IMG/VR virus record: IMGVR_UViG_2627853771_000003
Source: a virus
Lineage: Duplodnaviria > Heunggongvirae > Uroviricota > Caudoviricetes
Reading direction: 5' to 3' (one strand)
Length of the DNA: 48,551 bases
Position numbers and translations under genes: made by a program. The notes under the pieces are model-generated. The model had not been told where the DNA came from. It saw nothing but the letters and a program-made list of their open reading frames with translations, and made no database searches. How positions within the stretch are numbered: position 1 is the first letter of the stretch; the number at the start of each line of letters is the position of its first letter. Shown here one piece after another: positions 27,585 through 47,689 of this stretch.

Positions 27585-29059
27585 TGGCAATTCTTGATGA
27601 TGTGATTGGCGTTTTTTCACCAGGATGGAAAGCGGCAAGGCTGCGTTCCCGTGCGGTGATCCAGGCTTATGAGGCCGTAAAAACGACGCGGACACACAAA
27701 GCCCGACGGGAGAACCGAACTGCCGACCAGTTAAGCCAGTACGGGGCCGTGTCGTTACGTGAGCAGGCCCGTTACCTTGATAACAACCACGATCTGGTTA
27801 TTGGTGTATTTGACAAGCTGGAAGAACGGGTGGTGGGGAAAAACGGGATTATTGTCGAGCCACATCCGGTATTACGCAATGGGGCCATTGCCCGTGATCT
27901 GGCAGCGGAGATTCGCACCCGATGGAGTGAATGGTCTGTCAGCCCGGAAGTCACCGGGCAGTTTACCCGTCCGATGCTGGAACGTCTGATGCTTCGTACC
28001 TGGCTGCGCGATGGTGAGGTGTTTGCCCAGATGGTTTCCGGGCGCATAAACAGCCTGACGCCTTCTGCCGGTGTTCATTTCTGGCTGGAGGCACTCGAGC
28101 CGGACTTTATTCCCATGACCAGTGATGAGAGCAACAGGCTGAATCAGGGCGTGTTTGTTGATGGCTGGGGGCGTCCCGAAAAATATCTGGTGTATAAAAG
28201 TCGTCCCGTATCCGGACGGCAGATGGAAACCAAAGAAGTGGATGCAGAGCGAATGCTGCATCTTAAATTTGTTCGCCGTCTGCACCAGATGCGCGGGACG
28301 TCTTTGTTGTCCGGTGTGCTGATCCGCCTCAGTGCCCTGAAAGAGTATGAAGATTCTGAGCTGACTGCAGCAAGGATCGCCGCTGCTCTGGGGATGTACA
28401 TCCGGAAAGGCGACGGGCAGAGCTATGAACCGGATGGTAATGGCAGCAAGGATAAGGAACGCGAGCTTACCATTCAGCCAGGCATTATTTACGACGATCT
28501 GAAACCCGGCGAAGAAATCGGAATGGTGAAGTCGGATCGTCCCAATCCTAACCTTGAAACTTTTCGTAATGGTCAGTTGCGTGCCGTGGCGGCGGGCAGT
28601 CGTCTGAGTTTTTCCAGTACGGCACGCAACTATAACGGCACTTACAGCGCCCAGCGTCAGGAGCTGGTTGAATCCACTGATGGCTACCTGATCCTGCAGG
28701 ACTGGTTTATTGGTGCCGTCACCCGCCCGATGTATCGTGCCTGGCTGAAACAGGCTGTGGCATCCGGTGTTATCAGGCTACCCCGCGATCTTGACCGTTC
28801 TTCACTGTATACCGCGGTGTATTCCGGACCGGTGATGCCGTGGATTGACCCTGTTAAGGAGGCTGAGGCCTGGAAAATTCAGATTCGTGGTGGAGCGGCG
28901 ACAGAATCAGACTGGGTACGTGCAGGTGGTCGTAATCCGGATGATGTCAAACGTCGGCGCAAGGCCGAAATTGATGAAAACCGCAAGCTGGATCTGGTAT
29001 TTGATACCGATCCGGCCAGTGATAAAGGAGGCAGCAGTGCCGCAACGAAACGACAGTAG
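27584..29059 (+). CDS. B: portal protein (lambda B-like)
   Basis: 491 aa; ATG overlaps the W stop (TGATGG). Confidence 0.85.
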   Translation: MAILDDVIGVFSPGWKAARLRSRAVIQAYEAVKTTRTHKARRENRTADQLSQYGAVSLREQARYLDNNHDLVIGVFDKLEERVVGKNGIIVEPHPVLRNGAIARDLAAEIRTRWSEWSVSPEVTGQFTRPMLERLMLRTWLRDGEVFAQMVSGRINSLTPSAGVHFWLEALEPDFIPMTSDESNRLNQGVFVDGWGRPEKYLVYKSRPVSGRQMETKEVDAERMLHLKFVRRLHQMRGTSLLSGVLIRLSALKEYEDSELTAARIAAALGMYIRKGDGQSYEPDGNGSKDKERELTIQPGIIYDDLKPGEEIGMVKSDRPNPNLETFRNGQLRAVAAGSRLSFSSTARNYNGTYSAQRQELVESTDGYLILQDWFIGAVTRPMYRAWLKQAVASGVIRLPRDLDRSSLYTAVYSGPVMPWIDPVKEAEAWKIQIRGGAATESDWVRAGGRNPDDVKRRRKAEIDENRKLDLVFDTDPASDKGGSSAATKRQ

Positions 29060-31064
29060 CCGCAGCACACCGACGACCAGTCCGAAGAATAATTCCTGGT
29101 TCAGGATGCAGGCTGGTCACCAGAGTGACGCGGATATTTATATTTATGACGAGATTGGTTTCTGGGGTGTTACAGCGAAGCAGTTTATCAGTGATCTGAA
29201 TGCACTGGGCGATATCACCCACATTAATCTCCATATCAATTCACCGGGTGGCGATGTCTTTGAAGGCATCGCCATTTTTAATGCACTGAAAACACATGGT
29301 GCGTCCATTACCGTTTATGTCGACGGTGTGGCGGCGTCAATGGCGTCGGTCATTGCGATGGTGGGAAACCCGGTCATTATGCCGGAAAACACCTTCATGA
29401 TGATTCATAAACCATTTGGCTTTACGGGCGGTGATGCGGAGGACATGCGCACCTATGCCGACCTGCTCGATAAGGTTGAGGCGGTTCTGTTACCCGCTTA
29501 TGCACAGAAAACCGGGAAAACCACCGATGAAATTGCTGCCATGCTGGCGGATGAGACCTGGATGTCCGGTGCCGAATGTCTGGCACATGGATTTGCTGAT
29601 CAGGTGACGCCAGCCGTTAAGGCAATGGCATGTATTCAGTCAAAACGTACAGAGGAATTTAAAAAGATGCCGGAATCCATTCGAAACATGATTACTCCGC
29701 CACGCAACAGTGCTCCACGCGTACAGGATGATGAACCTGCAGCCTCCCGGACGCCAGTGCAGGCAGCAGCACCCGTGGTGGATGAAAACAGTATCCGTGC
29801 GCAGGTACTGGCAGAGCAAAAAGCGCGTGTAAACGGTATTAATGATCTGTTTGCCATGTTTGGCGGGCGTTATCAGACGCTGCAGGCTCAGTGTCTTGCC
29901 GATCCTGAATGTTCGCTGGAGCAGGCCCGCGAAAAGCTGTTGAACGAGATGGGGCGCGAGTCCACGCCATCCAATAAAAATACACCGGCTCATATTTATG
30001 CCGGTAACGGTAATTTTGTGGGGGACGGGATCCGCCAGGCGCTGATGGCGCGTGCCGGATTTGAAAAAACCGAACGTGATAATGTCTACAACGGGATGAC
30101 CCTGCGTGAATATGCCCGTATGTCACTGACTGAACGGGGTATTGGGGTTTCCAGTTATAACCCGATGCAGATGGTCGGTGCGGCGTTCACACACAGTACG
30201 TCTGACTTCGGTAATATTCTGCTGGATGTTGCGAACAAAGCCATTCTGCAGGGCTGGGAAGATGCCCCTGAAACCTATGAACAGTGGACGCGGAAAGGTC
30301 AGTTGTCTGATTTTAAAATTGCCCATCGTGTGGGTATGGGGGGCTTCAGTGCTCTGCGTCAGGTGCGTGAAGGGGCGGAATATAAATACGTCACCACCGG
30401 AGATAAACAGGCCACTATTGCACTGGCGACCTATGGCGAGCTGTTCAGTATCACCCGTCAGGCCATTATCAATGATGATCTGAATATGCTGACCGATGTC
30501 CCGATGAAGCTGGGCCGTGCGGCGAAATCCACTATTGCCGATCTGGTTTATGCCATTCTGACGTCTAACCCGAAAATCTCCACAGATAATGTAAGTCTGT
30601 TCGATAAAGCGAAACATGCAAACGTACTGGAGAGCGCTGCAATGGACGTGGCATCGCTGGATAAAGCCCGCCAGTTGATGCGCGTTCAGAAAGAGGGGGA
30701 GCGTCATCTGAATATTCGTCCTGCGTTCGTACTGGTACCGACGGCGATGGAGTCTGTTGCTAACCAGGTCATTCGCTCCTCAAGTGTCAAGGGGGCTGAC
30801 ATTAACGCCGGTATTATTAACCCGGTGAAAGATTTTGCGACCGTTATTGCAGAGCCTCGTCTTGATGATAACAGCCAGACCACCTTCTACCTGGCTGCGT
30901 CAAAAGGCTCCGATACGATTGAAGTGGCTTATCTCAACGGTGTGGATACGCCATATATTGATCAGATGGAGGGCTTCAGTGTGGATGGCGTGACAACGAA
31001 AGTGCGTATTGACGCCGGTGTCGCGCCAGTTGATCACCGCGGTCTGGTGAAATGTACGGCGTAA
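29037..31064 (+). CDS. ClpP-family prohead protease fused to HK97-fold major capsid protein
   Basis: GTG at 29037 after AAAGGAGG; N-terminal ClpP-like region (INSPGGDVFEGIAIFNALK...VDGVAASMASVIAMVG), then a long capsid-type C-terminal domain. Confidence 0.8.
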   Translation: MPQRNDSSRSTPTTSPKNNSWFRMQAGHQSDADIYIYDEIGFWGVTAKQFISDLNALGDITHINLHINSPGGDVFEGIAIFNALKTHGASITVYVDGVAASMASVIAMVGNPVIMPENTFMMIHKPFGFTGGDAEDMRTYADLLDKVEAVLLPAYAQKTGKTTDEIAAMLADETWMSGAECLAHGFADQVTPAVKAMACIQSKRTEEFKKMPESIRNMITPPRNSAPRVQDDEPAASRTPVQAAAPVVDENSIRAQVLAEQKARVNGINDLFAMFGGRYQTLQAQCLADPECSLEQAREKLLNEMGRESTPSNKNTPAHIYAGNGNFVGDGIRQALMARAGFEKTERDNVYNGMTLREYARMSLTERGIGVSSYNPMQMVGAAFTHSTSDFGNILLDVANKAILQGWEDAPETYEQWTRKGQLSDFKIAHRVGMGGFSALRQVREGAEYKYVTTGDKQATIALATYGELFSITRQAIINDDLNMLTDVPMKLGRAAKSTIADLVYAILTSNPKISTDNVSLFDKAKHANVLESAAMDVASLDKARQLMRVQKEGERHLNIRPAFVLVPTAMESVANQVIRSSSVKGADINAGIINPVKDFATVIAEPRLDDNSQTTFYLAASKGSDTIEVAYLNGVDTPYIDQMEGFSVDGVTTKVRIDAGVAPVDHRGLVKCTA

Positions 31065-31150: not shown

Positions 31151-31474
31151 ATGGCAAAGAATTTTGTAGAAGAAGGAAAAACGGTGGCGATTGTTGCCAG
31201 TGCAGCCATCAGCAGCGGAGATCTGGTGCAGGTGGGTGATGTTTTTGCGGTGGCGCTGACCGATATTCCACAGGGTGAAACAGGCGACGGCATGACCGAA
31301 GGTGTGTTTATGCTGCCTAAGCTGAAAACGGATGACATGAAAACGGGTAAGAAGGTTTATCTGAAGTCCGGAAAAGTTCAGCTGACTAACAGCGGCTCTG
31401 ATCCGCTGGTCGGGGTTGTCTGGGTAGATGCCGGAACCAGTGCAGAAGAAGTGCCGGTAAAACTCAATGTCTGA
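31151..31474 (+). CDS. small head-associated protein (DUF2190-like, possible decoration/connector protein)
   Basis: 108 aa, SD GGAG, immediately after the capsid gene. Confidence 0.55.
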   Translation: MAKNFVEEGKTVAIVASAAISSGDLVQVGDVFAVALTDIPQGETGDGMTEGVFMLPKLKTDDMKTGKKVYLKSGKVQLTNSGSDPLVGVVWVDAGTSAEEVPVKLNV

Positions 31475-31742
31475 TCCCTTTTCCCGGCTGGCAGCGCGTA
31501 TGGATGCGATCACGGTCAGAAAGATGGGAAAGACAGCCTCGATTAATGATGCCGATATGACTGTGATCCCGGGAGAAACACTGGCAGAGCTGAATGCTCT
31601 GTCCGGACCTGCGGTATCTCTGGTGGTGTTTTCTTCGGGATACCGCCCACGGCGCGGGGATCGCGTTGTTTATGACGGACAACAATGGACGGTCACACGG
31701 CATGAACGTTTTAACGGTAAGCCAATGATCTTTATTGAGTAA
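31467..31742 (+). CDS. head-tail attachment protein (FII-like)
   Basis: 91 aa, position between head and tail genes. Confidence 0.6.
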   Translation: MSDPFSRLAARMDAITVRKMGKTASINDADMTVIPGETLAELNALSGPAVSLVVFSSGYRPRRGDRVVYDGQQWTVTRHERFNGKPMIFIE

Positions 31743-31753
31743 AGAGGTGTGGG

Positions 31754-32332
31754 ATGAAGGGGCTTGAGAATGCCATCCGTAATCTGAACAGCCTTGATAC
31801 CCGTATGGTGCCACAGGCCAGCGCATGGGCGATAAACCGTGTGGCACAGAAAGCGGTCTCGGTCGCCACCCGGCAGGTTGCCGGGAATACCGTTGCGGGA
31901 GATAACCAGGTGAAAGGGATCCCCCTGAAACTGGTACGTCAGCGTGTCCGGGTGTTTAAAGCCAGTCCGTCAGGAAAAATGACGGCCAGGATCCGCGTTA
32001 ACCGGGGCAATCTGCCCGCTATTAAGCTGGGGACAGCCCGGGTCAGACTGGCCCGGCGTGGTGGAAAACTGCAGTACCGTGGCAGTGTGCTGAAGGTGGG
32101 TAAATATCTTTTCCGGGATGCGTTTATTCAGCAACTGGCGAATGGTCGCTGGCATGTGATGCGGCGTATTGATGGCAAAAATCGTTACCCCATTGATGTG
32201 GTGAAAATCCCTCTGTCCGGACCGCTGACGCAGGCATTTGAAGATGCCCGCGACCGCATCATTGCTGCGGAAATGCCGAAACAGCTGGGGTATGCACTGA
32301 AACAACAACTGAGGTTATGGCTGACCCGATGA
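31754..32332 (+). CDS. Z: minor tail protein Z
   Basis: 192 aa, lambda gene order. Confidence 0.8.
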   Translation: MKGLENAIRNLNSLDTRMVPQASAWAINRVAQKAVSVATRQVAGNTVAGDNQVKGIPLKLVRQRVRVFKASPSGKMTARIRVNRGNLPAIKLGTARVRLARRGGKLQYRGSVLKVGKYLFRDAFIQQLANGRWHVMRRIDGKNRYPIDVVKIPLSGPLTQAFEDARDRIIAAEMPKQLGYALKQQLRLWLTR

Positions 32333-32730
32333 ACCGACATACACAAATCCGCCAGGCCGTACTGGCACGCCTTCGGGAACAGTGTGGAGACAGCGCCACG
32401 TTTTTTGACGGGCTTCCGGCATTTGTTGATGCGCAGGAACTGCCTGCCGTGGCGGTGTGGCTGAGTGATGCTCTGTACACCGGAAAAATGACGGATGAAG
32501 ATGACTGGCAGGCTGTTCTGCATATTGCTGTCTTCATCCGGGCACAGGCACCGGATTCAGAGCTGGATATGTGGATGGAGAGCACCATTTTCCCGGCCCT
32601 GAATGATGTACCGGCACTTTCCGGACTCATCGACACCCTGATCCCACTCGGTTTTAACTATCAACGTGATAATGAGATGGCCACCTGGGCGATGGCGGAA
32701 ATCACGTACCAGATCACGTACACGAATTAA
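32329..32730 (+). CDS. U: minor tail protein U (tail terminator)
   Basis: ATGA overlap with Z stop. Confidence 0.8.
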   Translation: MNRHTQIRQAVLARLREQCGDSATFFDGLPAFVDAQELPAVAVWLSDALYTGKMTDEDDWQAVLHIAVFIRAQAPDSELDMWMESTIFPALNDVPALSGLIDTLIPLGFNYQRDNEMATWAMAEITYQITYTN

Positions 32731-32740
32731 GGAGGTGGCA

Positions 32741-33484
32741 ATGACCACACCAAATCCACTGGCAAAAACGAAAGGTGCGGGAACGACGTTCTGGATGTAC
32801 ACCGGCAAGGGCGATGCGTTTGCGAACCCTTTATCGGACACTGACTGGCTGCGTCTTGCGATGGTGAAGGATCTGCAGCCTGGCGAAATGACCGCTGATG
32901 CAGAAGATGACACTTATCTCGATGATGAAGATGCAGACTGGAAAACGACAACCCAGGGGCAGAAATCCGTCGGTGATACTTCGGCGACGCTGGCCTGGCG
33001 TCCGGGTGACAGCGGGCAGAAAAAACTGGTTCAGTTGTTCGACTCCGGTGAAGTCTGCGCGTTTCGTATCAAATATCCCAACGGTACTGTTGATGTTTTC
33101 CGTGGCTGGCTGAGTTCACTGGGTAAAACCATTGCCTCAAAAGACGTGATGACCCGCACAGTGAAAATCAGCGGTGTGGGGCGTCCGTATCTGGCAGAAG
33201 AAGGCACTGAAACCGTGAGCGTTACCGGGCTGACGGTGGCACCGGCATCTGCCAGTGTAAAAGTGGGAGCAACCACCACGCTGACCTTTACAGTAAAACC
33301 TGACGGAGCCAGTGACAAAGCGATCAGTGTGCATTCGACAGATCCACAGACTGCCACGGTGACCCTGAACGGGCTTGTGGCCACGGTGAAAGGCGTGAAG
33401 CAGGGCAGTGTCAGCATTGTGGGCATGACCGCTGACGGGAATTTTGTGGCTGTGGCTGCGGTGACTGTCAGCGCAGCAGGTTAA
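32741..33484 (+). CDS. V: major tail protein V with C-terminal Ig-like domain
   Basis: SD AAGGAGG; Ig-like C-terminal segment (VSVTGLTVAPASASVKVGATTTLTFTVKPDGASD). Confidence 0.85.
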   Translation: MTTPNPLAKTKGAGTTFWMYTGKGDAFANPLSDTDWLRLAMVKDLQPGEMTADAEDDTYLDDEDADWKTTTQGQKSVGDTSATLAWRPGDSGQKKLVQLFDSGEVCAFRIKYPNGTVDVFRGWLSSLGKTIASKDVMTRTVKISGVGRPYLAEEGTETVSVTGLTVAPASASVKVGATTTLTFTVKPDGASDKAISVHSTDPQTATVTLNGLVATVKGVKQGSVSIVGMTADGNFVAVAAVTVSAAG

Positions 33485-33504
33485 CAGGACGATACTCATC
33501 ATTT

Positions 33505-33528
33505 GCCCCGGTTATTCGGGGCTTTTTT
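33505..33528 (+). terminator. rho-independent terminator after V
   Basis: GCCCCG-GTTATT-CGGGGC hairpin followed by TTTTTT. Confidence 0.6.
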
Positions 33529-33541
33529 ACAGGTGGAGAAC

Positions 33542-33931
33542 ATGATGTTTCTGAAACAGGACACGTTTAATTATGAAAAACAGTCCGTGGTGCTCAGTGA
33601 GCTGTCCGGGCTGCAGAGAATTGAATATCTGGCGTTTGTTCAGCAGCGAACGGCAAAGTTTGATGCCGAAGAGGGAGAACTGCCGGAGGCTGAACGACAG
33701 ATTGCTTTTCTGCGGATGGGGATGGATATCAATGCCTGGCTGGTTTCCCGCTCACTGTGGAATGCGGAACAGTCTCAGGATGTTGAGACGCTTTGCGCAT
33801 CCGTTATTACAACATGGTCGTATGATGCCCTGGGAGCGGGGGCGGAGATGGTTCTGTCGCTGAGCGGTATGGGAGCCATTGAGAATGCCGGGGATTTGGA
33901 GCATGAGGTGCTGACGCCGGAAAAGTCCTGA
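33542..33931 (+). CDS. G: tail assembly chaperone G
   Basis: MMFLKQDTFNYEKQSVVLSELSGLQRIEYLAF...; SD GGTGGAG. Confidence 0.8.
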   Translation: MMFLKQDTFNYEKQSVVLSELSGLQRIEYLAFVQQRTAKFDAEEGELPEAERQIAFLRMGMDINAWLVSRSLWNAEQSQDVETLCASVITTWSYDALGAGAEMVLSLSGMGAIENAGDLEHEVLTPEKS

Positions 33932-33939
33932 CGCGGGAA

Positions 33940-34269
33940 ATGCAGTTTGTCATGCGGCTTGCCCGGGAGTTCCGGCGGGCAGACTGGCGGCGGATGCTGT
34001 CGGAAATGTCGGCCACTGAGCTTGGTGAATGGGGCGATTATTTCCGGATGCAGAGCTTCAGTGATGTGTGGATGGATGCGCAGTTTGCCTCGCTGAAGGC
34101 ATTGATCGTGAGAATGGTGTCCGGTAGCAGTGATGCTGCGGTGGCTGATTTCAGCCTTTTACCGGAAGAGAACGGGATACCGGAGCGAACGGACGAAGAA
34201 CTGATGCATCTTGGGGAAGGTATTTCCGGAGGTGTGCGTTATGGACCAGATAGCCAACCTGGTCATTGA
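33940..34269 (+). CDS. T: tail assembly protein T segment, expressed as a G-T fusion by -1 frameshift
   Basis: ORF in the -1 frame relative to G, open from the slippery region GGAAAAG (33919-33925) just before the G stop. Confidence 0.7.
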   Translation: MQFVMRLAREFRRADWRRMLSEMSATELGEWGDYFRMQSFSDVWMDAQFASLKALIVRMVSGSSDAAVADFSLLPEENGIPERTDEELMHLGEGISGGVRYGPDSQPGH

Positions 34270-37200
34270 TTTGGGGATTGATGCGGCAGAGTTTAAAAAT
34301 GAAATTCCCCGTATCAAAAACCTTCTGAATGGTGCAGCCAGCGATGCAGAACGGTCTTCTGCCCGTATGCAGCGTTTTATGGAGCGTCAGACTCAGGCCG
34401 CCCGGCAGACAACGCAGGCGGCTTCTTCGGCTGCAACAGCCGCATCCGTCCATGCGCAGACGGTGGAGAAGAACGCACAGGCTCATGAACGCATGGCCCG
34501 CGAGGTGGAGAAAACCCGCCAGCGCATGGAGGCACTGAGCCAGAAAATGCGCGAGGAACAGGCGCAGGCCATGGCTCTGGCGGAGGCTCAGGATAAAGCG
34601 GCTGCCGCGTTTTATCGTCAGATTGACAGTGTAAAACAGGCCAGTGCGGGGCTGCAGGAATTACAGCGTATTCAGCAGCAGATCCGACAGGCCAGAAACA
34701 GTGGCGGGATTGGTCAGCAGGATTATCTGGCGCTGATTTCTGAGGTTACGGCGAAAACCCGTGTTCTTACACAGGCTGAGGAAGAGGCTACCCGACAGAA
34801 AGTGGCGTTTATCCGTCAGCTTAAAGAGCAGGCAACCCGCCAGAATCTTTCTTCTTCTGAGTTGCTTCGTGCTAAGGCTGCCCAGCTGGGGGTAAGCAGT
34901 GCTGCAGAAGTGTATATCCGCAAAATGGAGCAGGCAGGAAAAGCAACGCATTCGCTGGGTCTGAAAAGTGCAGCGGCCCGTCAGGAGATAGGCGTTCTGA
35001 TAGGTGAACTGGCCCGCGGCAATTTAGGTGCGCTGAGGGGATCCGGAATAACGCTGGCTAACCGTGCCGGATGGATAGACACATTGATGTCACCGAAAGG
35101 CATGATGCTTGGCGGGGTTATTGGCGGTATTGCCGCGGCTGTCTATGGTCTGGGTAAAGCCTGGTATGACGGTCAGAAGGAGGGGGAAGAATTTAACCGC
35201 CAGCTGTCGCTGACGGGGCATTATGCCGGAGTCACTGCCGGGCAGCTGTGGACGCTCAGTCGTGCTATTTCCGGGAATGGTATCACGCAACATGCTGCAG
35301 CCGGTGCGCTGGCTCAGGTGGTGGGGAGTGGTGCATTTCGTGGAAACGATATCGGTATGGTGGCGAGAGCTGCCGCACAGATGGAGCGATCGGTTGGCCA
35401 GTCGGTCAGCGATACCATAAATCAGTTTAAGCGGCTGAAGGATGATCCTGTAAATGCCGCGAAGGCTCTGGACAATGAGCTGCATTTTCTTACTGCCACT
35501 CAGCTTGAGCAGATACGCGTCCTTGGGGAACAGGGGCGGTCCAGTGATGCGGCACGGATAGCCATGTCTGCACTGGCAGAGGAAACCGGTCGGCGTACTG
35601 CGGATATTGATAATAACCTCAATGCGCTGGGCAGTACGCTGAAGTATCTGTCTGATTTATGGAGTCGTTTCTGGGATGCGGCCATGAATATTGGTCGTGA
35701 AGACTCGCTGGATGAACAGATTTCCGCTTTACAGGAGAAAGTGTCGCGGGCGAAAAGACTCCCCTGGACGGCATCATCTTCTCAGGTTGAGTACGATCAG
35801 CAGCGTCTTAACGAGCTTCAGGAGAAAAAACGCCAGAAGGATTTGCAGGATGCAAAAGAGCAGGCAGAGCGGAATTATCAGGAGCAACAGAAACGCCGTA
35901 ATGCTGAAAATGCTGCACTGAACCGGATGAATGAAACGGAAGCAGCACGACATCAGCGTGAAATTGCGCGTATTAATGCCATGCAGTACGCCGATCAGGC
36001 TGTCAGGGATGCGGCGATACAACGTGAAAATGAACGTTACGAGAAAGCCCTGGCATCCGGTAAGAAAAAAACACGCGAACCCCGTAATGATGAGGCCACC
36101 CGGTTATTGCTGCAGTACAGTCAGCAACAGGCACAGGTGGAAGGACAGATTGCTGCTGCCAGACAGTCAGCAGGCATTGCCACGGAAAGGATGACAGAAG
36201 CGCATAAACAGCTTCTGGCTCTGCAGCAGCGCATCAGCGACCTGGACGGGAAAAAACTGACGGCAGATGAAAAGAGTGTGCTGGCCCGTAAAGATGAACT
36301 GATTCAGGCACTGACGCTGCTGGATGTAAAACAGCAGGAGCTTCAGAAACAGACGGCACTCAACGAGCTGAAGAAAAAAACAATTCAGCTGACCAGTCAA
36401 CTGGCTGAAGAAGAGCGCGCTCAGCGTCAGCAACATGACCTGGATATCGCCACGGTGGGTATGGGTGATCAGCAGCGGCAGCGATATCAGGTACAACTGA
36501 GTCTTCGCCAGAAATACCAGCAACAGCTGGAGCAGTTGAGGCGGGATAGTGAGCAGAAAGGAACATATAACACGGATGACTACAGAAAGGCCGAGCAGGC
36601 GCTGACGGAGAGCCTGAACCGACAACTGAATGAGAATCGCCGTTACTGGCAACAGCTTGAAGTTGTGCAGGGTAACTGGAAAAACGGAGTCCTGCGTGCA
36701 TTTCAGGATTTTACCGTGGATGCAGATAATACGGCAGGAACAGCAGAACAGGTGTTCTCGTCAGCCTTCAGCAACATGGGAAATGGCCTGGCAACTTTTG
36801 TCACTACCGGCAAACTCAATTTCAAATCCTTCACCTCTTCTGTGCTGTCAGATATGGCGAAAATCCTGGCGCAGGCAACCATGATGAAATCGATAAAAGG
36901 GATTGGCAGTGTACTGGGATTTGATCTCAGCAGCCTTTCCCTGAATGCCAATGGGGGGATTTATCAGTCTGCTGATTTGAGCCGTTACAGTGGCACGGTG
37001 GTTAACCGTCCGACGTTTTTTGCTTTTGCAAAAGGCGCGGGTGTGATGGGGGAAGCGGGACCTGAAGCCATTCTGCCACTGCGTCGTGGTGCTGACGGTA
37101 AGCTGGGGGTTGTGGCGGATATTGGTGGTTCAGGTATGGCGATGTTTGCCCCGCAGTACAACATCGAGATCAATAACGATGGCACGAACGGGCAGATAGG

Positions 37201-37306
37201 TCCGGCTGCCCTGAAGGTGGTTTATGACCTTGGGAAAAAAGCGGCAGCGGACTTTATGCAACAGCAGGCCCGTGATGGTGGTCGGTTAAGTGGAGCATAT
37301 CGGTAA
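34241..37306 (+). CDS. H: tail tape measure protein H
   Basis: 1021 aa, coiled-coil rich; SD GGAGG. Confidence 0.9.
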   Translation: MDQIANLVIDLGIDAAEFKNEIPRIKNLLNGAASDAERSSARMQRFMERQTQAARQTTQAASSAATAASVHAQTVEKNAQAHERMAREVEKTRQRMEALSQKMREEQAQAMALAEAQDKAAAAFYRQIDSVKQASAGLQELQRIQQQIRQARNSGGIGQQDYLALISEVTAKTRVLTQAEEEATRQKVAFIRQLKEQATRQNLSSSELLRAKAAQLGVSSAAEVYIRKMEQAGKATHSLGLKSAAARQEIGVLIGELARGNLGALRGSGITLANRAGWIDTLMSPKGMMLGGVIGGIAAAVYGLGKAWYDGQKEGEEFNRQLSLTGHYAGVTAGQLWTLSRAISGNGITQHAAAGALAQVVGSGAFRGNDIGMVARAAAQMERSVGQSVSDTINQFKRLKDDPVNAAKALDNELHFLTATQLEQIRVLGEQGRSSDAARIAMSALAEETGRRTADIDNNLNALGSTLKYLSDLWSRFWDAAMNIGREDSLDEQISALQEKVSRAKRLPWTASSSQVEYDQQRLNELQEKKRQKDLQDAKEQAERNYQEQQKRRNAENAALNRMNETEAARHQREIARINAMQYADQAVRDAAIQRENERYEKALASGKKKTREPRNDEATRLLLQYSQQQAQVEGQIAAARQSAGIATERMTEAHKQLLALQQRISDLDGKKLTADEKSVLARKDELIQALTLLDVKQQELQKQTALNELKKKTIQLTSQLAEEERAQRQQHDLDIATVGMGDQQRQRYQVQLSLRQKYQQQLEQLRRDSEQKGTYNTDDYRKAEQALTESLNRQLNENRRYWQQLEVVQGNWKNGVLRAFQDFTVDADNTAGTAEQVFSSAFSNMGNGLATFVTTGKLNFKSFTSSVLSDMAKILAQATMMKSIKGIGSVLGFDLSSLSLNANGGIYQSADLSRYSGTVVNRPTFFAFAKGAGVMGEAGPEAILPLRRGADGKLGVVADIGGSGMAMFAPQYNIEINNDGTNGQIGPAALKVVYDLGKKAAADFMQQQARDGGRLSGAYR

Positions 37307-37635
37307 TGGAGACGTTTCACTGGAAAGTGCGCCCGGATATGAATGTGGTATCAGAGCCGAAAGTGGTGACAGTGAAGCTGGGCGATGGTTATGAACAGCG
37401 TCGTGCGGCGGGACTGAATAACCAGTTGTCGATTTACAGCGTGACGATACGTGTTCGTAAATGTGAACACCCATCTTTAAAAGCCTTTCTGGAACGGCAC
37501 GGTGGCGTCCGCGCATTTCAGTGGACGCCACCTTATGACTGGAAGCCGATCAGGGTGGTTTGTCGTAAATGGTCGGCAAGCGTGGGGGCGCTGTGGGTAA
37601 CCATAACGGCAGATTTTGAACAGGTCGTGGCATAG
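37306..37635 (+). CDS. M: minor tail protein M
   Basis: 109 aa; ATG overlaps the H stop (TAATG). Confidence 0.85.
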   Translation: METFHWKVRPDMNVVSEPKVVTVKLGDGYEQRRAAGLNNQLSIYSVTIRVRKCEHPSLKAFLERHGGVRAFQWTPPYDWKPIRVVCRKWSASVGALWVTITADFEQVVA

Positions 37636-37644
37636 GAGGCTCTG

Positions 37645-38343
37645 ATGCAGGATATTCCACAGGAAACACATCATGAGACGACACGCCTCACTCAGTCAGC
37701 CCAGGTGGTGCTCTGGGAAATCGATCTGACAGAGGTCGGTGGTGAACGTTATTTTTTCGGTAATGAGCAGAACGAAAAAGGTGAACCAGTCACCTGGCAG
37801 GGGCGGCAGTATCAGGCTTATCCCATTCAGGGAAGCGGATTTGAGATGAACGGCAAAGGAGCCAGTGCAAGGCCAACGCTTAAAGTCTCTAATCTGTACG
37901 GCATGGTCACCGGGATGGCGGAAGACCTGCAGAGTCTGGTCGGCGGAACGGTGGTCCGGCGTAAGGTTTACGCCCGTTTTCTGGATGCGGTGAACTTCGT
38001 CAACGGAAACAGTGACGCCGATCCGGAGCAGGAGGTGATCAGCCGCTGGCGCATCGAGCAGTGCAGCGAACTGAGCGCGGTGAGTGCCTCTTTTGTACTG
38101 TCCACGCCGACGGAAACGGACGGTGCCGTTTTTCCGGGACGTATCATGCTGGCCAACACCTGCACCTGGACCTATCGCGGTGATGAGTGCGGTTATCACG
38201 GTCCGGCGGTAGCGGATGAATATGATCAGCCGACGTCCGATATCACGAAGGATAAATGCAGCAAGTGCCTGAGCGGCTGTAAGTTTCGCAATAACGTCGG
38301 CAACTTTGGCGGCTTCCTTTCCATTAACAAACTTTCGCAGTGA
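37645..38343 (+). CDS. L: minor tail protein L
   Basis: 232 aa; SD AGGAGG; C-terminal Cys cluster. Confidence 0.85.
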   Translation: MQDIPQETHHETTRLTQSAQVVLWEIDLTEVGGERYFFGNEQNEKGEPVTWQGRQYQAYPIQGSGFEMNGKGASARPTLKVSNLYGMVTGMAEDLQSLVGGTVVRRKVYARFLDAVNFVNGNSDADPEQEVISRWRIEQCSELSAVSASFVLSTPTETDGAVFPGRIMLANTCTWTYRGDECGYHGPAVADEYDQPTSDITKDKCSKCLSGCKFRNNVGNFGGFLSINKLSQ

Positions 38344-38348
38344 ATCCC

Positions 38349-39092
38349 ATGACAGAGACAGAATCAGCGATTCTGGCGCACGCCCGGCGATGTGCGCCAG
38401 CAGAGTCGTGCGGCTTCGTGGTGAGAACACCGGAGGGGGAAAGATATTTTCCCTGCGTGAATATCTCCGGTGAGCCGGAGGCGTATTTCCGGATGTCGCC
38501 GGAGGACTGGCTGCGGGCAGAGATGCAGGGTGAGATTGTGGCGCTGGTCCACAGCCACCCCGGTGGTCTGCCCTGGCTGAGTGAGGCCGACCGGCGGCTG
38601 CAGGTGCAGAGTGATTTGCCGTGGTGGCTGGTCTGCCGGGGGGCGATTCATAAGTTCCGCTGTGTGCCGCATCTCACCGGGCGGCGCTTTGAGCACGGGG
38701 TGACGGACTGTTACACGCTGTTCCGGGATGCTTATCATCTGGCGGGGATTGAGATGCCGGATTTTCATCGCGGGGATGACTGGTGGCGTCACGGTCAGAA
38801 TCTCTATCTGGATAATCTGGAGGCCACAGGGCTGTATCAGGTGCCGTTGTCATCAGCACAACCGGGCGATGTGCTGCTGTGCTGCTTTGGTTCATCGGTG
38901 CCGAATCATGCCGCCATTTACTGTGGTGACGGCGAGCTGCTGCACCATATTCCTGAACAACTGAGCAAACGAGAGAGGTACACCGACAAATGGCAGCGAC
39001 GCACACACTCCCTCTGGCGTCACCGGGAATGGCACGCATCTGCCTTTACGGGGATTTACAACGATTTGGCCGCCGCATCGACCTTCGTGTGA
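38349..39092 (+). CDS. K: tail assembly protein K (JAB/MPN + NlpC/P60 domains)
   Basis: HSHPGG (JAB) motif and a Cys/His peptidase-like region; track start is a GTG at 38340. Confidence 0.8.
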   Translation: MTETESAILAHARRCAPAESCGFVVRTPEGERYFPCVNISGEPEAYFRMSPEDWLRAEMQGEIVALVHSHPGGLPWLSEADRRLQVQSDLPWWLVCRGAIHKFRCVPHLTGRRFEHGVTDCYTLFRDAYHLAGIEMPDFHRGDDWWRHGQNLYLDNLEATGLYQVPLSSAQPGDVLLCCFGSSVPNHAAIYCGDGELLHHIPEQLSKRERYTDKWQRRTHSLWRHREWHASAFTGIYNDLAAASTFV

Positions 39093-39637
39093 AAACGGGG
39101 GCTGAAGCCATCCGCGCACTGGCCACACAGCTCCCGGTGTTTCGTCAGAAACTGAATGAGGGCTGGTATCAGATACGGATTGCCGGGCGTGATGCAGGTG
39201 AAACCGAATTGTCTGCCCGTCTTAATGAGCCGCTGGCAAATGGTGCCGTGATCCACATCGTGCCGCGTCTGGCGGGAGCTAAAAGTGGCGGTGTGTTTCA
39301 GGTGGTGCTGGGGGCGGCGCTGATTGCGGTGGCATGGTGGAACCCTGTGGGCTGGCTGGGTGTCGCGGCTGTATCGGGCATGTATGCGGCAGGGGCCAGT
39401 ATGATCCTGGGCGGAGTGGCGCAGATGCTGGCACCGAAAGCCAGGACGCCCACGGCAGCAAGTACAGATAACGGCAAACAGAACACCTATTTTTCTTCAC
39501 TGGATAATATGGTTGCCCAGGGCAATGTTCTGCCCGTTCTGTACGGGGAAATGCGCGTGGGGTCACGTGTGGTTTCTCAGGAGATCAGCACGGCAGACGA
39601 AGGGGATGGTGGCCAGGTTGTAGTGATTGGTCGCTGA
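39029..39637 (+). CDS. I: tail assembly protein I
   Basis: MARICLYGDLQRFGRRIDL... with a hydrophobic C-terminal half; start choice (39029 vs 38990) uncertain. Confidence 0.7.
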   Translation: MARICLYGDLQRFGRRIDLRVKTGAEAIRALATQLPVFRQKLNEGWYQIRIAGRDAGETELSARLNEPLANGAVIHIVPRLAGAKSGGVFQVVLGAALIAVAWWNPVGWLGVAAVSGMYAAGASMILGGVAQMLAPKARTPTAASTDNGKQNTYFSSLDNMVAQGNVLPVLYGEMRVGSRVVSQEISTADEGDGGQVVVIGR

Positions 39638-39655
39638 TGCAAAATGTTTTATGTG

Positions 39656-39679
39656 AAACCGCCTCCGGGCGGTTTTGTC
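39656..39679 (+). terminator. possible attenuator hairpin before J
   Basis: ACCGCC-TCCG-GGCGGT hairpin followed by TTTTGTCGTTT. Confidence 0.3.
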
Positions 39680-39697
39680 GTTTATGGAGTGTGAGGA

Positions 39698-42600
39698 ATG
39701 GGTAAAGGCAGCAGTAAGGGGCATACCCCGCGCGAAGCAAAGGACAACCTGAAGTCCACGCAGTTGCTGAGTGTGATCGATGCCATCAGCGAAGGGCCGG
39801 TTGAAGGTCAGGTGGATGGATTAAAAAGCGTGCTGCTGAACAGTACACCGGTGCTGGACAGTGAGGGGAATACCAACATCTCCGGTGTCACGGTGGTGTT
39901 CCGTGCCGGTGAGCAGGAGCAGACACCGCCGGAGGGGTTTGAATCCTCCGGCTCCGAGACGGTGCTGGGTACGGAAGTGAAATATGACACGCCGATCACC
40001 CGCACCATTACGTCTGCAAACATCGACCGTCTGCGCTTTACCTTCGGTGTGCAGGCACTGGTGGAAACCACCTCAAAGGGGGACCGGAATCCGTCGGAAG
40101 TTCGCCTGCTGGTTCAGATACAGCGTAATGGTGGCTGGGTGACGGAAAAAGACATCACCATTAAGGGCAAAACCACCTCGCAGTATCTGGCCTCGGTGGT
40201 GGTGGATAACCTGCCGCCGCGCCCGTTTAATATCCGGATGCGCAGGATGACGCCGGACAGCACCACAGACCAGCTGCAGAACAAAACGCTCTGGTCGTCA
40301 TACACCGAAATCATCGATGTGAAACAGTGCTACCCGAACACGGCACTGGTCGGCGTGCAGGTGGATTCGGAGCAGTTCGGCAGCCAGCAGGTGAGCCGTA
40401 ATTATCATCTTCGCGGGCGTATTCTGCAGGTGCCGTCGAATTATAACCCGCAGACGCGGCAATACAGCGGTATCTGGGACGGGACGTTTAAACCGGCATA
40501 CAGCAACAACATGGCCTGGTGTCTGTGGGATATGCTGACCCACCCGCGCTACGGCATGGGGAAACGTCTCGGTGCGGCGGATGTGGACAAATGGGCGCTG
40601 TATGTCATCGGCCAGAATTGTGACCAGTCGGTGCCGGACGGCTTTGGCGGTACGGAGCCGCGCATCACCTGTAACGCTTACCTGACCACACAACGTAAGG
40701 CGTGGGATGTGCTCAGTGATTTCTGCTCGGCGATGCGCTGTATGCCGGTATGGAACGGGCAGACGCTGACGTTCGTGCAGGACCGACCATCGGATAAGGT
40801 GTGGACCTATAACCGCAGTAATGTGGTGATGCCGGATGATGGCGCGCCGTTCCGCTACAGCTTCAGCGCCCTGAAGGACCGCCATAATGCCGTTGAGGTG
40901 AACTGGATTGACCCGGATAACGGCTGGGAGACGGCAACAGAGCTTGTGGAGGACTCGCAGGCCATTGCCCGTTACGGTCGTAACGTCACGAAGATGGATG
41001 CGTTTGGCTGTACCAGTCGGGGGCAGGCGCACCGCGCCGGGCTGTGGCTGATTAAAACAGAACTGCTGGAAACGCAGACCGTGGACTTCAGCGTGGGTGC
41101 CGAAGGGCTTCGCCATGTACCGGGCGATGTCATTGAAATCTGCGATGATGACTATGCCGGTATCAGCACCGGCGGGCGCGTGCTGGCGGTGAACAGCCAG
41201 ACCCGGACGCTGACGCTCGACCGTGAAATCACGCAGCCATCCTCCGGCACCACGCTGATAAGCCTGGTTGACGGAAGTGGCAATCCGGTCAGCGTGGAGG
41301 TCCAGTCCGTCACCGACGGCGTGAAGGTGAAAGTGAGCCGGGTTCCTGACGGCGTTGCCGAGTACAGCGTGTGGGGGCTGAAGCTGCCGACGCTGCGCCA
41401 GCGCCTGTTCCGCTGTGTGAGTATCCGTGAGAACGACGACGGTACGTATGCCATCACTGCAGTGCAGCATGTACCGGAGAAAGAAGCCATCGTGGATAAC
41501 GGGGCGCACTTTGACGGTAACCAGAGCGGCACGGTGAATGGTGTCACGCCGCCAGCAGTGCAGCATCTGACCGCCGAAGTCACCGCAGACAGCGGGGAAT
41601 ACCAGGTGCTGGCCCGCTGGGACACGCCGAAGGTGGTGAAGGGCGTGAGCTTCCTGCTTCGCCTGACCGTGGCAGCGGATGACGGCAGTGAGCGGCTGGT
41701 CAGCACGGCCCGGACGACGGAAACCACTTACCGCTTCACACAACTGGCTCTGGGGAACTACAGGCTGACAGTCCGGGCAGTAAATGCGTGGGGGCAGCAG
41801 GGCGATCCGGCGTCGGTATCGTTCCGGATTGCCGCACCGGCAGCGCCGTCGCGGATTGAGCTGACGCCGGGCTATTTTCAGATAACCGCCACGCCGCATC
41901 TTGCGGTTTATGATCCGACGGTACAGTTTGAGTTCTGGTTCTCGGAAAAGCGGATTGCGGATATCAGGCAGGTTGAAACCACAGCACGCTATCTTGGCAC
42001 GGCGCTGTACTGGATAGCCGCCAGTATCAATATCAGGCCGGGCCATAATTATTATTTTTACGTTCGCAGTGTGAACACCGTTGGCAAATCGGCATTCGTG
42101 GAGGCTGTTGGTCAGCCGAGTGATGACGCATCCGGCTATCTGGATTTTTTCAAAGGCGAGATAGGGAAAACCCATCTGGCTCAGGAGCTGTGGACGCAGA
42201 TTGATAACGGTCAGCTTGCGCCTGACCTGGCTGAAATCAGGACATCCATTACGGATGTCAGCAATGAAATCACACAGACCGTCAATAAGAAACTGGAAGA
42301 CCAGAGTGCAGCGATCCAGCAGATACAGAAGGTTCAGGTTGATACAAATAATAACCTGAACAGCATGTGGGCCGTGAAACTGCAGCAGATGCAGGACGGA
42401 CGCCTTTATATTGCGGGTATCGGTGCCGGTATTGAGAATACGTCAGCAGGAATGCAGAGTCAGGTGCTGCTGGCGGCAGACAGGATTGCGATGATTAATC
42501 CTGCGAATGGCAACACAAAGCCGATGTTTGTTGGTCAGGGTGATCAGATATTCATGAACGACGTGTTCCTGAAACGCCTGACGGCTCCCACCATTACCAG

Positions 42601-43177
42601 CGGCGGTAATCCTCCTGCATTTTCCCTTACACCGGACGGGCGACTGACGGCGAAAAATGCGGATATCAGTGGCAGTGTGAATGCGAACGCCGGGACGCTC
42701 AACAATGTCACGATAAATGAAAACTGTCGGGTTCTGGGAAAACTGTCTGCGAACCAGATTGAAGGCGATCTCGTTAAAACAGTGGGCAAAGCTTTCCCCC
42801 GGGACTCCCGTGCACCGGAGCGGTGGCCATCAGGGACCATTACCGTCAGGGTTTATGACGATCAGCCGTTTGACCGGCAGATTGTTATTCCCACGGTGGC
42901 GTTTCGTGGCGCTAAACATGAGCGGGAGAATAACGATATTTATTCGTCATGCCGCCTGATAGTGAAGAAAAACGGTGCTGAAATTTATAACCGTACCGCG
43001 CTGGATAATACGCTGGTTTATACAGGTGTTATTGATATGCCTGCTGGTCGCGGTCACATGACGCTGGAGTTTTCGGTATCAGCGTGGCTGGTAAATGACT
43101 GGTATCCCACAGCCAGTATCAGTGATTTGCTGGTTGTGGTGATGAAGAAATCCACAGCAGGTATCACGATTAGCTGA
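39698..43177 (+). CDS. J: tail tip / host-specificity protein J
   Basis: 1159 aa; SD GAGGAA; lambda gene order. Confidence 0.9.
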
Positions 43178-43196
43178 ATTTTCATAACCCATATGC

Positions 43197-43224
43197 GGGC
43201 GCCATTTCTGGCGCCTTTTTTATT
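43197..43224 (+). terminator. rho-independent terminator after J
   Basis: GGCGCC-ATTTCT-GGCGCC hairpin followed by TTTTTTATT. Confidence 0.6.
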
Positions 43225-43245
43225 GCAGAAAAGCGAGAGGTAATT

Positions 43246-43845
43246 ATGCGTAAAGTTTGTGCAGCCATTTTGTCCGCAGCCATCTGTCTGGCCGTATCCG
43301 GTGCGCCTGCATGGGCGTCTGAGCAGCAGGCCACACTGAGCGCAGGGTATCTTCATGCCCGTACGAACGCTCCCGGCAGCGATAATCTGAACGGGATTAA
43401 CGTGAAATACCGTTATGAGTTTACGGACACGCTGGGGCTGATTACGTCATTCAGTTATGCCAACGCTGAAGATGAGCAAAAAACGCATTACAGCGATACC
43501 CGCTGGCATGAGGATTCCGTGCGTAACCGCTGGTTCAGCGTGATGGCGGGGCCGTCTGTGCGCGTGAATGAATGGTTCAGCGCGTATGCGATGGCGGGTG
43601 TGGCTTACAGCCGTGTGTCGACTTTCTCCGGGGATTATCTCCGCGTAACTGACAACAAGGGGAAAACGCACGATGTGCTGACCGGAAGTGATGACGGTCG
43701 CCACAGCAACACGTCTCTGGCGTGGGGGGCTGGCGTGCAGTTTAACCCGACCGAATCCGTGGCCATTGATGTCGCTTATGAAGGCTCCGGCAGTGGCGAC
43801 TGGCGCACTGACGGTTTCATCGTGGGTGTCGGTTATAAGTTCTGA
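43246..43845 (+). CDS. lom: Lom-like outer-membrane protein (Ail/PagC family)
   Basis: Signal peptide, C-terminal ...VGVGYKF beta-barrel terminus; SD GAGAGG; the position lom occupies in lambda. Confidence 0.85.
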   Translation: MRKVCAAILSAAICLAVSGAPAWASEQQATLSAGYLHARTNAPGSDNLNGINVKYRYEFTDTLGLITSFSYANAEDEQKTHYSDTRWHEDSVRNRWFSVMAGPSVRVNEWFSAYAMAGVAYSRVSTFSGDYLRVTDNKGKTHDVLTGSDDGRHSNTSLAWGAGVQFNPTESVAIDVAYEGSGSGDWRTDGFIVGVGYKF

Positions 43846-43899: not shown

Positions 43900-43909
43900 T
43901 GGGGTGAAT

Positions 43910-46900: not shown

Positions 46901-47689
46901 AACCACAGAAGCAGCGCTCAAGTGCTGTTAAATGGCGATGATGGAGCGGTTCAACTACTAAGTGGCACTGTTAACGGTGCTACAGCGCAGGCGCTAACCA
47001 TCAACAAAGATGAGGTTAACTCAACTGCCGATTTAGTAATTAGAAAACAAACAGGGACTGGCAATCGTTTTGCTTTACTTAATTCAGGTAATTCAGAACT
47101 ACCAGTTAGTATCAGGGTGTGGGGTTCCAGTACTCGACAAAACGTTTTTGAGGTTGGCACGTCTGCTGCGTATCTGTTTTATGCGCAAAAAACAACAGAC
47201 GGGCAAAACCTTACTGTAAACGGAAGTGTTAACTGCACCACACTGAATCAGTCATCAGACCGCAGACTGAAAGAAAATATCGAGATTATCGATAACGCGA
47301 CTGACGCAATCCGCAAAATTAATGGATACACGTACACGCTCAAGGAGAATGGGGCACATTGCGCCGGGGTTATAGCACAGGAAGTTGAAGAGGCCATCCC
47401 GGAGGCCGTTGGTTCATTCATCCATTACGGTGAAGAGTTGCAAGGCCCGACCGTTGACGGCAACGAGCTACGCGAAGAAACGCGCTATCTTAATGTTGAC
47501 TACGCCGCCGTGACGGGTTTACTTGTTCAGGTCGCCCGTGAAACAGATGATCGCGTTACCGCGCTGGAAGAGGAAAACACAACGTTACGTCAAAATCTGG
47601 CAACAGCAGGCACCCGGATCAGCACTCTGGAAAATCAGGTAAGCGAACTGGTTGCACTTGTCCGGCAGTTAACAGGAAGCGAACATTGA
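43910..47689 (+). CDS. stf: side tail fibre protein with Ala/Ser/Thr-rich repeat region and C-terminal intramolecular chaperone (peptidase S74-like) domain
   Basis: N-terminus MAVKISGVLKDGAGKPVQNCTIQLKAKRN (lambda Stf-like). Low-complexity A/S/T repeats at about 44250-44900. C-terminal 144 aa (47255-47686) begin SDRRLKENIEII, the conserved autoproteolytic motif. Confidence 0.85.
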   Translation: MAVKISGVLKDGAGKPVQNCTIQLKAKRNSTTVVANTVASENPDEAGRYSMDVEYGQYSVILLVEGFPPSHAGTITVYEDSQPGTLNDFLGAMTEDDVRPEALRRFELMVEEVARNASAVAQNTAAAKKSASDASTSAREAATHATDAAGSARAASTSAGQAASSAQSASSSAGTASTKATEASKSAAAAESSKSAAATSAGAAKTSETNAAASQKSAATSASTATTKASEAATSARDASASKVAAKSSETSAASSAGSAASSATAAGNSAKAAKTSETNADNSAQAAADSQTASANSATAAKKSETNAKNSESAAKVSETNAKASENKAKEYLDKVGGLVSPMTQYDWPVVTASESLYIKIAKLSDPGTSRSHVTLMVTNAGNYGSPYGNIDFIEISARGLPSLLSADNVSRHLSIRRLGSTGLTDNNQMRYGLVKGDGFIEVWAFQGAFINDAKVAVLAQTTLNTELYIPDGFVKQTPAPSGYIEGNVVRIYDQLNKPTKADLGLSNAMLTGAFGLGGSGISTNGKMSDVEILKALRDKGGHFWRGDKPTGSTATIYSHGSGIFSRCGDTWSAINIDYSTAKIKIYAGNDARLNNGTFSVNELYGSANKPSKSDVGLGNVTNDAQVKKTGDTMTGDLTIKKGTPSVFLRADSGVTALRFYTGDNTERGIIYAGPNTDSLGEVRIRAKTAGGTSGGDLVVRHDGRVEVRDLTVAYKIKSRTIEIANTDTDSSATTLSIYGVQHTPLVLTRSGSSENVSIGFKLDNMNPKYLGIDTNGDLAFGESPDQKQNSKLITQAKLDKGLTIGGQLAFKGTTAFSAVATFSAGIAGAIEPENIDGQTVNLNNLTIIKSDAGAVKYYICPSSAGGANITNKPDGVTGNFLLRVESTRKVRDSDYANMQTLINSDTKRIYVRFVVNGNWTAWSQVVVSGWNQDVTVRSLTSTTPSKLGGGRIDVLGSTSDYGSMNCTVRGVDSTGTNSAWSVGTSESTGKMLFLKNHRSSAQVLLNGDDGAVQLLSGTVNGATAQALTINKDEVNSTADLVIRKQTGTGNRFALLNSGNSELPVSIRVWGSSTRQNVFEVGTSAAYLFYAQKTTDGQNLTVNGSVNCTTLNQSSDRRLKENIEIIDNATDAIRKINGYTYTLKENGAHCAGVIAQEVEEAIPEAVGSFIHYGEELQGPTVDGNELREETRYLNVDYAAVTGLLVQVARETDDRVTALEEENTTLRQNLATAGTRISTLENQVSELVALVRQLTGSEH

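Follow-up and report, generated by a model that had tools for sequence, protein, structure and literature searches.

The window analysed here, a stretch of 48,551 nucleotides of E. coli prophage DNA, carries a head module followed by tail genes (Table 1). Between the portal and decoration protein genes lies a single gene of 675 codons plus a stop, whose translation contains no internal stop and gives a product of 73.5 kDa. By simple arithmetic, a random stretch of 675 codons would stay open with a probability of about (61/64)^675, or about 1e-14. The gene starts with a GTG at 29037, 5 nt 3' of AAGGAGG, which is the sole strong Shine-Dalgarno-like site ahead of any in-frame start codon within it, and it overlaps the 3' end of the portal gene by 23 nt (portal stop at 29057-29059). 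The ORF listed by program extends back to a TTG at 28845 and is longer than the 675-aa gene, while RefSeq has the same 675-aa protein (100% identity and coverage).

Table 1. Features of the fused gene, of its product and of the neighboring head and tail genes
Feature	Position	Strand	Evidence
Portal protein, lambda family, directly upstream of fused gene	27584..29059	+	Pfam Phage_portal_2 E 1.4e-81; 22% identity to lambda B
Shine-Dalgarno sequence AAGGAGG	29025..29031	+	Direct sequence reading
Whole fused gene: ClpP-like prohead protease, scaffold-like segment and major capsid protein	29037..31064	+	Translation, NF045540, PHROG 133, Gifsy-2 STM1034.3n
ClpP-fold serine protease domain, aa ~20-192; catalytic Ser101, His124, Glu173	29094..29612	+	
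Conserved post-protease segment, aa 193-222, two short helices	29613..29702	+	Alignments and model
Disordered linker rich in Pro/Ala/Thr/Gln, hypervariable, aa 223-248	29703..29780	+	pLDDT, alignments
Helical scaffold-like segment, aa 249-312	29781..29972	+	Model helices, hhalign to lambda gpC and Nu3
Major capsid protein domain, HK97 fold, Mu gpT-like / Phage_capsid_4 family, aa 313-675, about 39 kDa	29973..31061	+	
Head decoration (cement) protein, directly downstream of fused gene	31151..31474	+	Pfam Phage_cement_2 E 2.5e-20; PHROG 122
Head-tail joining protein, Pfam 'Gifsy-2' family, FII-like; final gene ahead of tail genes	31467..31742	+	PF13856 E 1.3e-17; weak Phage_attach match
Tail genes in lambda order Z, U, V, G, T, H, M, L, K, I, J	31754..43177	+	

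Pfam places a ClpP domain and a capsid domain in one chain, as do NCBIfam and PHROGs. An AF2 model built from an alignment of 98 sequences, including representatives 35-60% identical, is confident (pLDDT 86.6) and places a disordered linker and a helical part between two folded domains; a model from 16 close homologues (75-96% identical) had a mean pLDDT of 36 and was discarded. Gly71, Gly72, Ser101 and His124 are invariant in the 98 diverse homologues, and residue 173 is acidic in 94 of them. The post-protease segment forms helices at 203-207 and 213-219 in the model, and its Pro212 is 93% conserved in the alignment of homologues. The linker has pLDDT below 50 over aa 224-245; it is unconserved, with many gaps, and varies from 2 to 59 residues among the 98 homologues. 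Three helices (250-273, 280-288 and 294-308, pLDDT 88-96) make up the scaffold-like segment, which corresponds to Nu3 of lambda and to the delta domain of HK97, and aa 311-325, right after it, are modeled with low confidence. A profile search of PDB sequences with the full-length alignment listed ClpP alone; in fold, the C-terminal domain matches shells of the HK97 type. The original prediction had recognized the protease and the HK97-fold capsid domain but had missed the linker and the scaffold-like segment between them, which make the gene tripartite.

The protein belongs to the NCBIfam family NF045540 (scaf_prot_MCP1), with 985 bits (E 2e-296; curated cut-off 475 bits) over aa 32-674 against profile positions 2-651 of 652, and also matches PHROG 133. 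Three features of the family are present: a ClpP-fold serine protease at the N-terminus that has the catalytic Ser and His, a C-terminal HK97-fold capsid domain in the same unbroken frame, and a place in the head module between the portal and decoration protein genes. NF045541 (scaf_prot_MCP2) is the second of the two NCBI-curated HMMs devoted to protease/capsid fusions; here it reaches 400 bits over aa 220-672, under its cut-off of 525, with matches to the middle and capsid parts but none to the protease part. A bona fide ATP-dependent Clp protease subunit was rejected, since the curated equivalog cut-offs are not reached (TIGR00493, 59.6 bits against 308.6; the remaining ClpP models are likewise far below theirs). 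Thus "ClpP-type" refers to the fold and catalytic residues and not to an ATP-dependent Clp protease.

DNA of the fused gene was found in 2124 of 5426 complete E. coli genomes (about 40%), where it is named ClpP-like prohead protease/major capsid protein fusion protein, and the exact 2028-bp sequence occurs at 100% identity in many of them. The same NF045540 gene is present at 99-100% DNA identity in the E. coli phages mEp460, cdtI, Ayreon, Tritos and phi458 (above 99% in these viable phages) and in thousands of E. coli/Shigella prophages. Nothing substantial differs from these carriers, except that here an IS element sits in the terminase gene of the prophage. Beyond them, more than 100 distinct 50%-identity clusters (35-60% identity) have the same unbroken full-length architecture. 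Many phage records name the gene merely "protease", "Nu3", "protease C" or "major head protein".

The closest described system is that of Gifsy-2. In pairwise protein comparison the fused protein and STM1034.3n share 70% identity from end to end, and the decoration protein is 60% identical to its Gifsy-2 counterpart. Both systems have the three-part layout of ClpP-like protease, middle part and capsid protein, and both have the neighbor order terminase, W-like, portal, fusion, decoration, FII-like, Z and onward, with a lambda-like tail. They differ in the sequence and length of the linker, in the N-terminal ~25 residues and in the host, which is Salmonella for Gifsy-2 and E. coli here. An experimental description of the Gifsy-2 tripartite capsid gene was reportedly made by Effantin et al. 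in 2010. A passage in PMC8538268, citing Effantin et al. 2010 (Virology 402:355), places a trimeric cement protein on Gifsy-2 capsids, and the mosaic of head and tail has already been described for phages of the Gifsy-2 type (PMC12315714, PMC6471424).

Tail genes in the order of lambda had been expected downstream, and tblastn bears this out: lambda Z, U, V, G, T, H, M, L, K, I, J and lom are matched in that order at 31748-43842. The proteins from Z to J are 50-96% identical to those of lambda, with lower values for G, T and H (25-38%). No copy of the lambda G/T slippery heptamer GGGAAAG occurs in the G/T overlap, and the heptamer is not enriched. In the head module, tblastn with lambda W, C, Nu3, D, E, FI and FII gave no match in the window, the decoration protein has no sequence similarity to lambda D in that search, and hhalign against gpE gave a probability of 0.2%, that is, no similarity. 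A lambda-type head with a separate gpE-family capsid gene was therefore rejected. However, terminase and portal fall in the Pfam families of lambda (25% and 22% identity), and hhalign aligns the protease and scaffold half colinearly with lambda gpC (E 1.8e-6, probability 90%) and also with Nu3 (E 1.7e-5), both alignments covering the scaffold-like segment. This half is a remote, colinear relative of gpC/Nu3. The claim that the head is of a different lineage from the tail largely holds, for capsid and decoration proteins that are unlike lambda E and D beside a lambda-like tail, but the split is not absolute, with terminase, portal and the gpC/Nu3-like half related to lambda.

The arrangement was also compared with the separate protease and capsid genes of lambda and HK97, a comparison that the original prediction had suggested. 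In lambda the protease and scaffold genes C and Nu3, a nested pair that uses an internal start, also follow the portal gene, the protease is of the same ClpP/SppA fold clan, and a trimeric decoration protein comes next, as here; but capsid protein E is a separate gene after D, whereas here the capsid is fused to the protease, and C is an S49 peptidase while the protease here is S14-like. In HK97, gp5 likewise has its scaffold function fused N-terminal to an HK97-fold capsid protein, and this scaffold part is removed by a co-assembled protease. However, the HK97 protease gp4 has its own gene and belongs to an unrelated family, whereas here the protease is in the same chain, and HK97 uses covalent cross-links where a cement protein is found here. 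No similarity to gp4 or gp5 was detected by hhalign (probability 0.2% and 0.8%), which rejects a head with gp4-family protease and gp5-family capsid sequences and leaves the capsid fold alone in common.

Taken as a whole, the locus very probably represents a Gifsy-2-type "tripartite capsid gene" of lambdoid prophages, encoding one chain of 675 aa with three functional parts. From the anatomy of the gene, the assembly of HK97 and lambda and what is reported for Gifsy-2, we infer the following course. Lambdoid capsids are T=7, and the C-terminal domains would build a T=7 procapsid shell around the portal, with the N-terminal protease and scaffold parts facing inward. Concentrated inside, the proteases would cut the chain between scaffold and capsid domain (near aa 311-325, as a guess) and digest the internal parts. 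DNA packaging would then expand the shell, to which the downstream cement protein would bind and give stability. The fusion would fix protease, scaffold and capsid at 1:1:1 and ensure that the protease is encapsidated. Release of the capsid by self-processing, which had been proposed as a necessity, can be inferred and is consistent with the conserved Ser101, His124 and acidic residue 173 and with published work on Gifsy-2; the Gifsy-2 literature cited in PMC12315714 supports a release of the mature capsid protein by proteolysis. The search of solved structures showed none of the procapsid state at high resolution.

Two other readings concern the gene itself. The long ORF could be an artefact or a pseudogene-type fusion of once-separate protease and capsid genes, produced by a frameshift, a lost stop or a sequencing error, and accidental fusions are known at this locus, as the deletion of one G at 29042, 5 nt into the gene, joins it to the portal in some assemblies and gives proteins of 1159 aa. 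However, the probability of such an origin is negligible. The exact sequence is shared by many complete genomes, NCBI has curated two HMMs for exactly such fusions, and the annotation of the fusion in thousands of genomes and its presence in viable phages argue that neither a frameshift nor a sequencing artefact is involved; judged from the sequences, the conservation of one frame across divergent homologues already refutes it. The single fused ORF of the original prediction is thus upheld, with neither an internal stop nor a frameshift. The gene could instead be nested, with an in-frame start at the candidate Met211 (29667) also giving a scaffold-capsid chain free of protease, so that most shell subunits would lack the protease. 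Met211 lies just past the protease domain and is invariant in close relatives, with GAGGAA 9-10 nt upstream in the window and GAGGAG in Gifsy-2, and lambda, with its remotely homologous C/Nu3 region, has such an internal start. But the codons in the GAGGAR motif specify a conserved Glu-Glu, which can explain why the motif is kept without any role in translation, and the match is weak compared with the Shine-Dalgarno sequence of the true start. Moreover, in the wider family Met211 is not conserved (the commonest residue is Val, 18%), and for this reason the internal start was downgraded to an improbable reading. If it were true, the dose of protease per procapsid would follow from the relative use of two initiation sites, as in lambda C/Nu3, and would not be held at 1:1 by the fusion.

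A further reading bears on the present use of the gene and not on its identity. An IS66-family element at 23217-25747, flanked by an 8-bp target duplication (ACATTATG), divides the large terminase gene into 22736-23216 and 25756-27375. A search of the 5426 complete E. coli genomes for the junction between element and terminase gave no match, pointing to a recent insertion specific to this strain. With its large terminase gene interrupted, the prophage is probably defective and unable to package DNA, and the fused gene may be unused in this host owing to this disruption. It would then be an inert relic, kept by recent descent and not by use. The split terminase and the uniqueness of the junction favor this, but the fused gene is itself undamaged, with copies of 100% identity in other genomes, and another resident lambdoid prophage could provide terminase; such complementation is reported for E. 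coli O157 prophages (PMC2669165). We give the relic reading an even chance.

In its Gifsy-2-type form, the fused arrangement is already known and named and is very common in lambdoid prophages of E. coli and Salmonella, and therefore the gene is an ordinary one. Its value as a discovery is small, as Gifsy-2 was described in 2010, NCBI has a curated model and a product name for the gene, and it occurs in around two fifths of the complete E. coli genomes. For annotation, the domain map and the remote link of the first half to gpC/Nu3 help to name the parts correctly. The family is a neat natural case in which protease, scaffold and shell subunit would be supplied at a fixed stoichiometry of 1:1:1.

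The fused gene reads without interruption through 675 residues to its stop codon, as the original prediction held; 675 random codons would stay open with a chance of about (61/64)^675, roughly 1e-14 by our own arithmetic. Mechanical ORF listing starts the frame further upstream, at a TTG (28845). The GTG at 29037 was preferred because a perfect AAGGAGG (29025-29031) ends 5 nt before it and the RefSeq product (P0004) is the same 675-aa protein, with 100% identity and coverage. From this GTG on, the fused gene shares 23 nt with the end of the portal gene, whose frame is a different one.

Coordinates of the features discussed (aa, residues of the fused protein)
Feature	Position	Strand	Remarks
823-aa ORF	844-3315	minus	C-terminal Rv2179c-like/RNase T-type exonuclease domain
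Small terminase-like DUF1441 protein	22188-22727		First in head gene order
Large terminase, split	22736-23216 and 25756-27375		Lambda-type; cut within ATPase domain
8-bp duplication ACATTATG	23209-23216 and 25748-25755		Flanks IS66-family element
IS66-family element	23217-25747	minus	Three ORFs of 141, 116 and 537 aa
W-sized protein	27366-27584		72 aa
Portal	27584-29059		Lambda-family
Fused gene	29037-31064	+	Between portal and cement/decoration gene
Folded domain	aa ~20-192		AlphaFold2 model
Two short helices	up to aa 219		AlphaFold2 model
Linker between protease and scaffold-like part	aa 223-248 (29703-29780)		Pro/Ala/Thr/Gln-rich
Disordered stretch	aa 224-245		AlphaFold2 model
Three confident helices	aa 250-308		AlphaFold2 model
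Short low-confidence stretch	aa 311-325		AlphaFold2 model
Large alpha/beta domain	aa 327 to C-terminus		AlphaFold2 model
Cement/decoration protein	31151-31474		Adjoins fused gene
FII-like "Gifsy-2 family" protein	31467-31742		End of head genes
Tail module with leap in lambda identity	31748-43177		Between M and L
Side tail fibre gene	43904-47689		1261 aa

Pfam matches in the protein are CLP_protease (aa 31-191, E 2.8e-36) and Phage_capsid_4 (aa 375-672, E 9.4e-55), with a weaker Mu-like gpT match inside the latter; phrog_133 (PHROGs) covers its entire length. Against PDB sequences, the N-terminal part matches ClpP (E 4e-16; 3e-33 with the family profile), and the C-terminal part weakly matches capsid protein structures with a Mu GpT domain (8rkc and 8rkx, E 7e-4). 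An AlphaFold2 model built from 98 diverse homologues was confident (mean pLDDT 86.6). In the 98-sequence alignment Gly71, Gly72, Ser101 and His124 are invariant, and residue 173, which pairs with the catalytic Asp of ClpP, is Glu or Asp in 94 homologues. The linker is hypervariable even where relatives are otherwise >90% identical, and its range of 2 to 59 residues among the 98 homologues suggests a length-tolerant tether.

Protease and capsid had both been recognized correctly, but the scaffold-like middle, a third functional part, had been missed. Lambda gpC is a protease that carries the Nu3 scaffold as its C-terminal third. The family profile is colinear with gpC (aa 60-337 with gpC 123-422; hhalign E 1.8e-6, probability 90%) and also matches Nu3 by itself (E 1.7e-5, probability 78%). 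These matches are moderate evidence for equating the helical segment at aa 249-312 with the scaffold of lambda. Such a middle segment fits the "tripartite" description of the Gifsy-2 gene STM1034.3n (Effantin et al. 2010).

As one translation unit the gene encodes a protease whose catalytic Ser/His/acidic set is intact, then a flexible linker, a scaffold-like stretch of helices and an HK97-fold shell domain, and a cement protein gene lies beside it. An assembly scheme can be drawn by analogy with HK97 and lambda, and with the Gifsy-2 head as reportedly described by Effantin et al. (2010). Capsid domains would assemble around the portal into a T=7 procapsid that encloses the protease and scaffold parts; the proteases would then cut the chain where scaffold and capsid domain join, and digest what lies inside. 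On DNA packaging the shell would expand and the cement protein bind threefold sites. Our guess for the cleavage site is the stretch near aa 311-325, placed there only because it is modelled with low confidence, is poorly conserved (Pro311 excepted) and lies between the last scaffold and first capsid helix. Cut there, the chain would yield a capsid protein of roughly 38-40 kDa.

An artefactual fusion of separate protease and capsid genes is excluded: a single frame is kept across divergent homologues, and the sequenced viable phages mEp460, cdtI, Ayreon, Tritos and phi458 carry the fused gene at >99% identity. A nested start at Met211 is weakly supported by a preceding GAGGAA motif (GAGGAG in Gifsy-2), but this motif also codes for a Glu-Glu pair that is itself conserved, and the wider family does not conserve Met211. 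The fused gene may be idle in this genome, where an IS66-family element interrupts the large terminase gene. The element is ISEc23-like going by its nearest matches, with ends GTAAGCG.../...CGCTTAC. Its junction with the terminase is absent from all 5426 complete E. coli genomes searched; therefore the prophage was probably inactivated recently.

At least 12 database proteins of 1159 aa (e.g. P0007, GCA_012637905.1) are single ORFs that run from the portal through protease and scaffold to the capsid. In a locus carrying this allele (L004, 1501-4980), one G is missing at the position corresponding to 29042 (GTGCCGCAA -> GTGCC-CAA), in the portal/fusion overlap (29037-29059); the portal thereby enters the frame of the fused gene and the usual GTG start goes out of frame. 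It may be a true, defective allele that spread with a clone, or an assembly error that recurs.

The tail genes follow the lambda order (Z, U, V, G, T, H, M, L, K, I, J, lom), as predicted. Identity to lambda is 50-55% for Z, U, V and M, 25-38% for G, T and H, and 78-96% for L, K, I and J, against 25% for terminase A and 22% for portal B; lambda W, C, Nu3, D, E, FI and FII had no BLAST match in the window. By these sequence comparisons the head/tail mosaic is real. The proposed separate lineage of the head holds for the capsid and decoration proteins, which belong to families other than those of lambda, but not for the terminase, portal and protease-scaffold half, which are distant lambda-family relatives. 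The jump in identity between M and L points to a putative second recombination joint besides the head/tail one. The side tail fibre gene differs from the lambda stf/tfa pair: it has a lambda-like N-terminal domain (phage_tail_N) and, at its C-terminus, a Peptidase_S74 intramolecular chaperone domain, and its product is predicted to be a second self-cleaving structural protein.

The observation was confirmed and its interpretation supported in substance, yet the finding is not new. The fused arrangement is common, curated and published, since the protein scores 985 bits against NCBIfam NF045540 (cut-off 475), the 2028-bp gene occurs in 2124 of the 5426 complete E. coli genomes as well as in the viable phages, and among 50%-identity representatives, searched exhaustively, well over 100 distinct clusters share this full-length architecture (35-60% identity). 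Under the NF045540 product name, 1526 records hold the gene at >=99% identity; VT1-Sakai and Stx2 phages carry it at 78%. Gifsy-2 STM1034.3n shares 70% identity along the entire protein; its neighbours come in matching order, and the Gifsy-2 decoration protein is 60% identical. Gifsy-2 is named among phages with head and tail modules from different types (PMC6471424), and the Gifsy-2 study is cited elsewhere for a trimeric cement protein (PMC8538268). Gifsy-2 also carries a RecE (exodeoxyribonuclease VIII) gene, which the 823-aa ORF resembles by size and position.

Public phage records (e.g. PV340571.1, ON470598.1, NC_019716.1) name the fused gene inconsistently, as "head-tail preconnector protein Nu3", "protease C", "head maturation protease", "major head protein" or "protease/scaffold protein", so that comparisons automated by product name would overlook it as a capsid gene.
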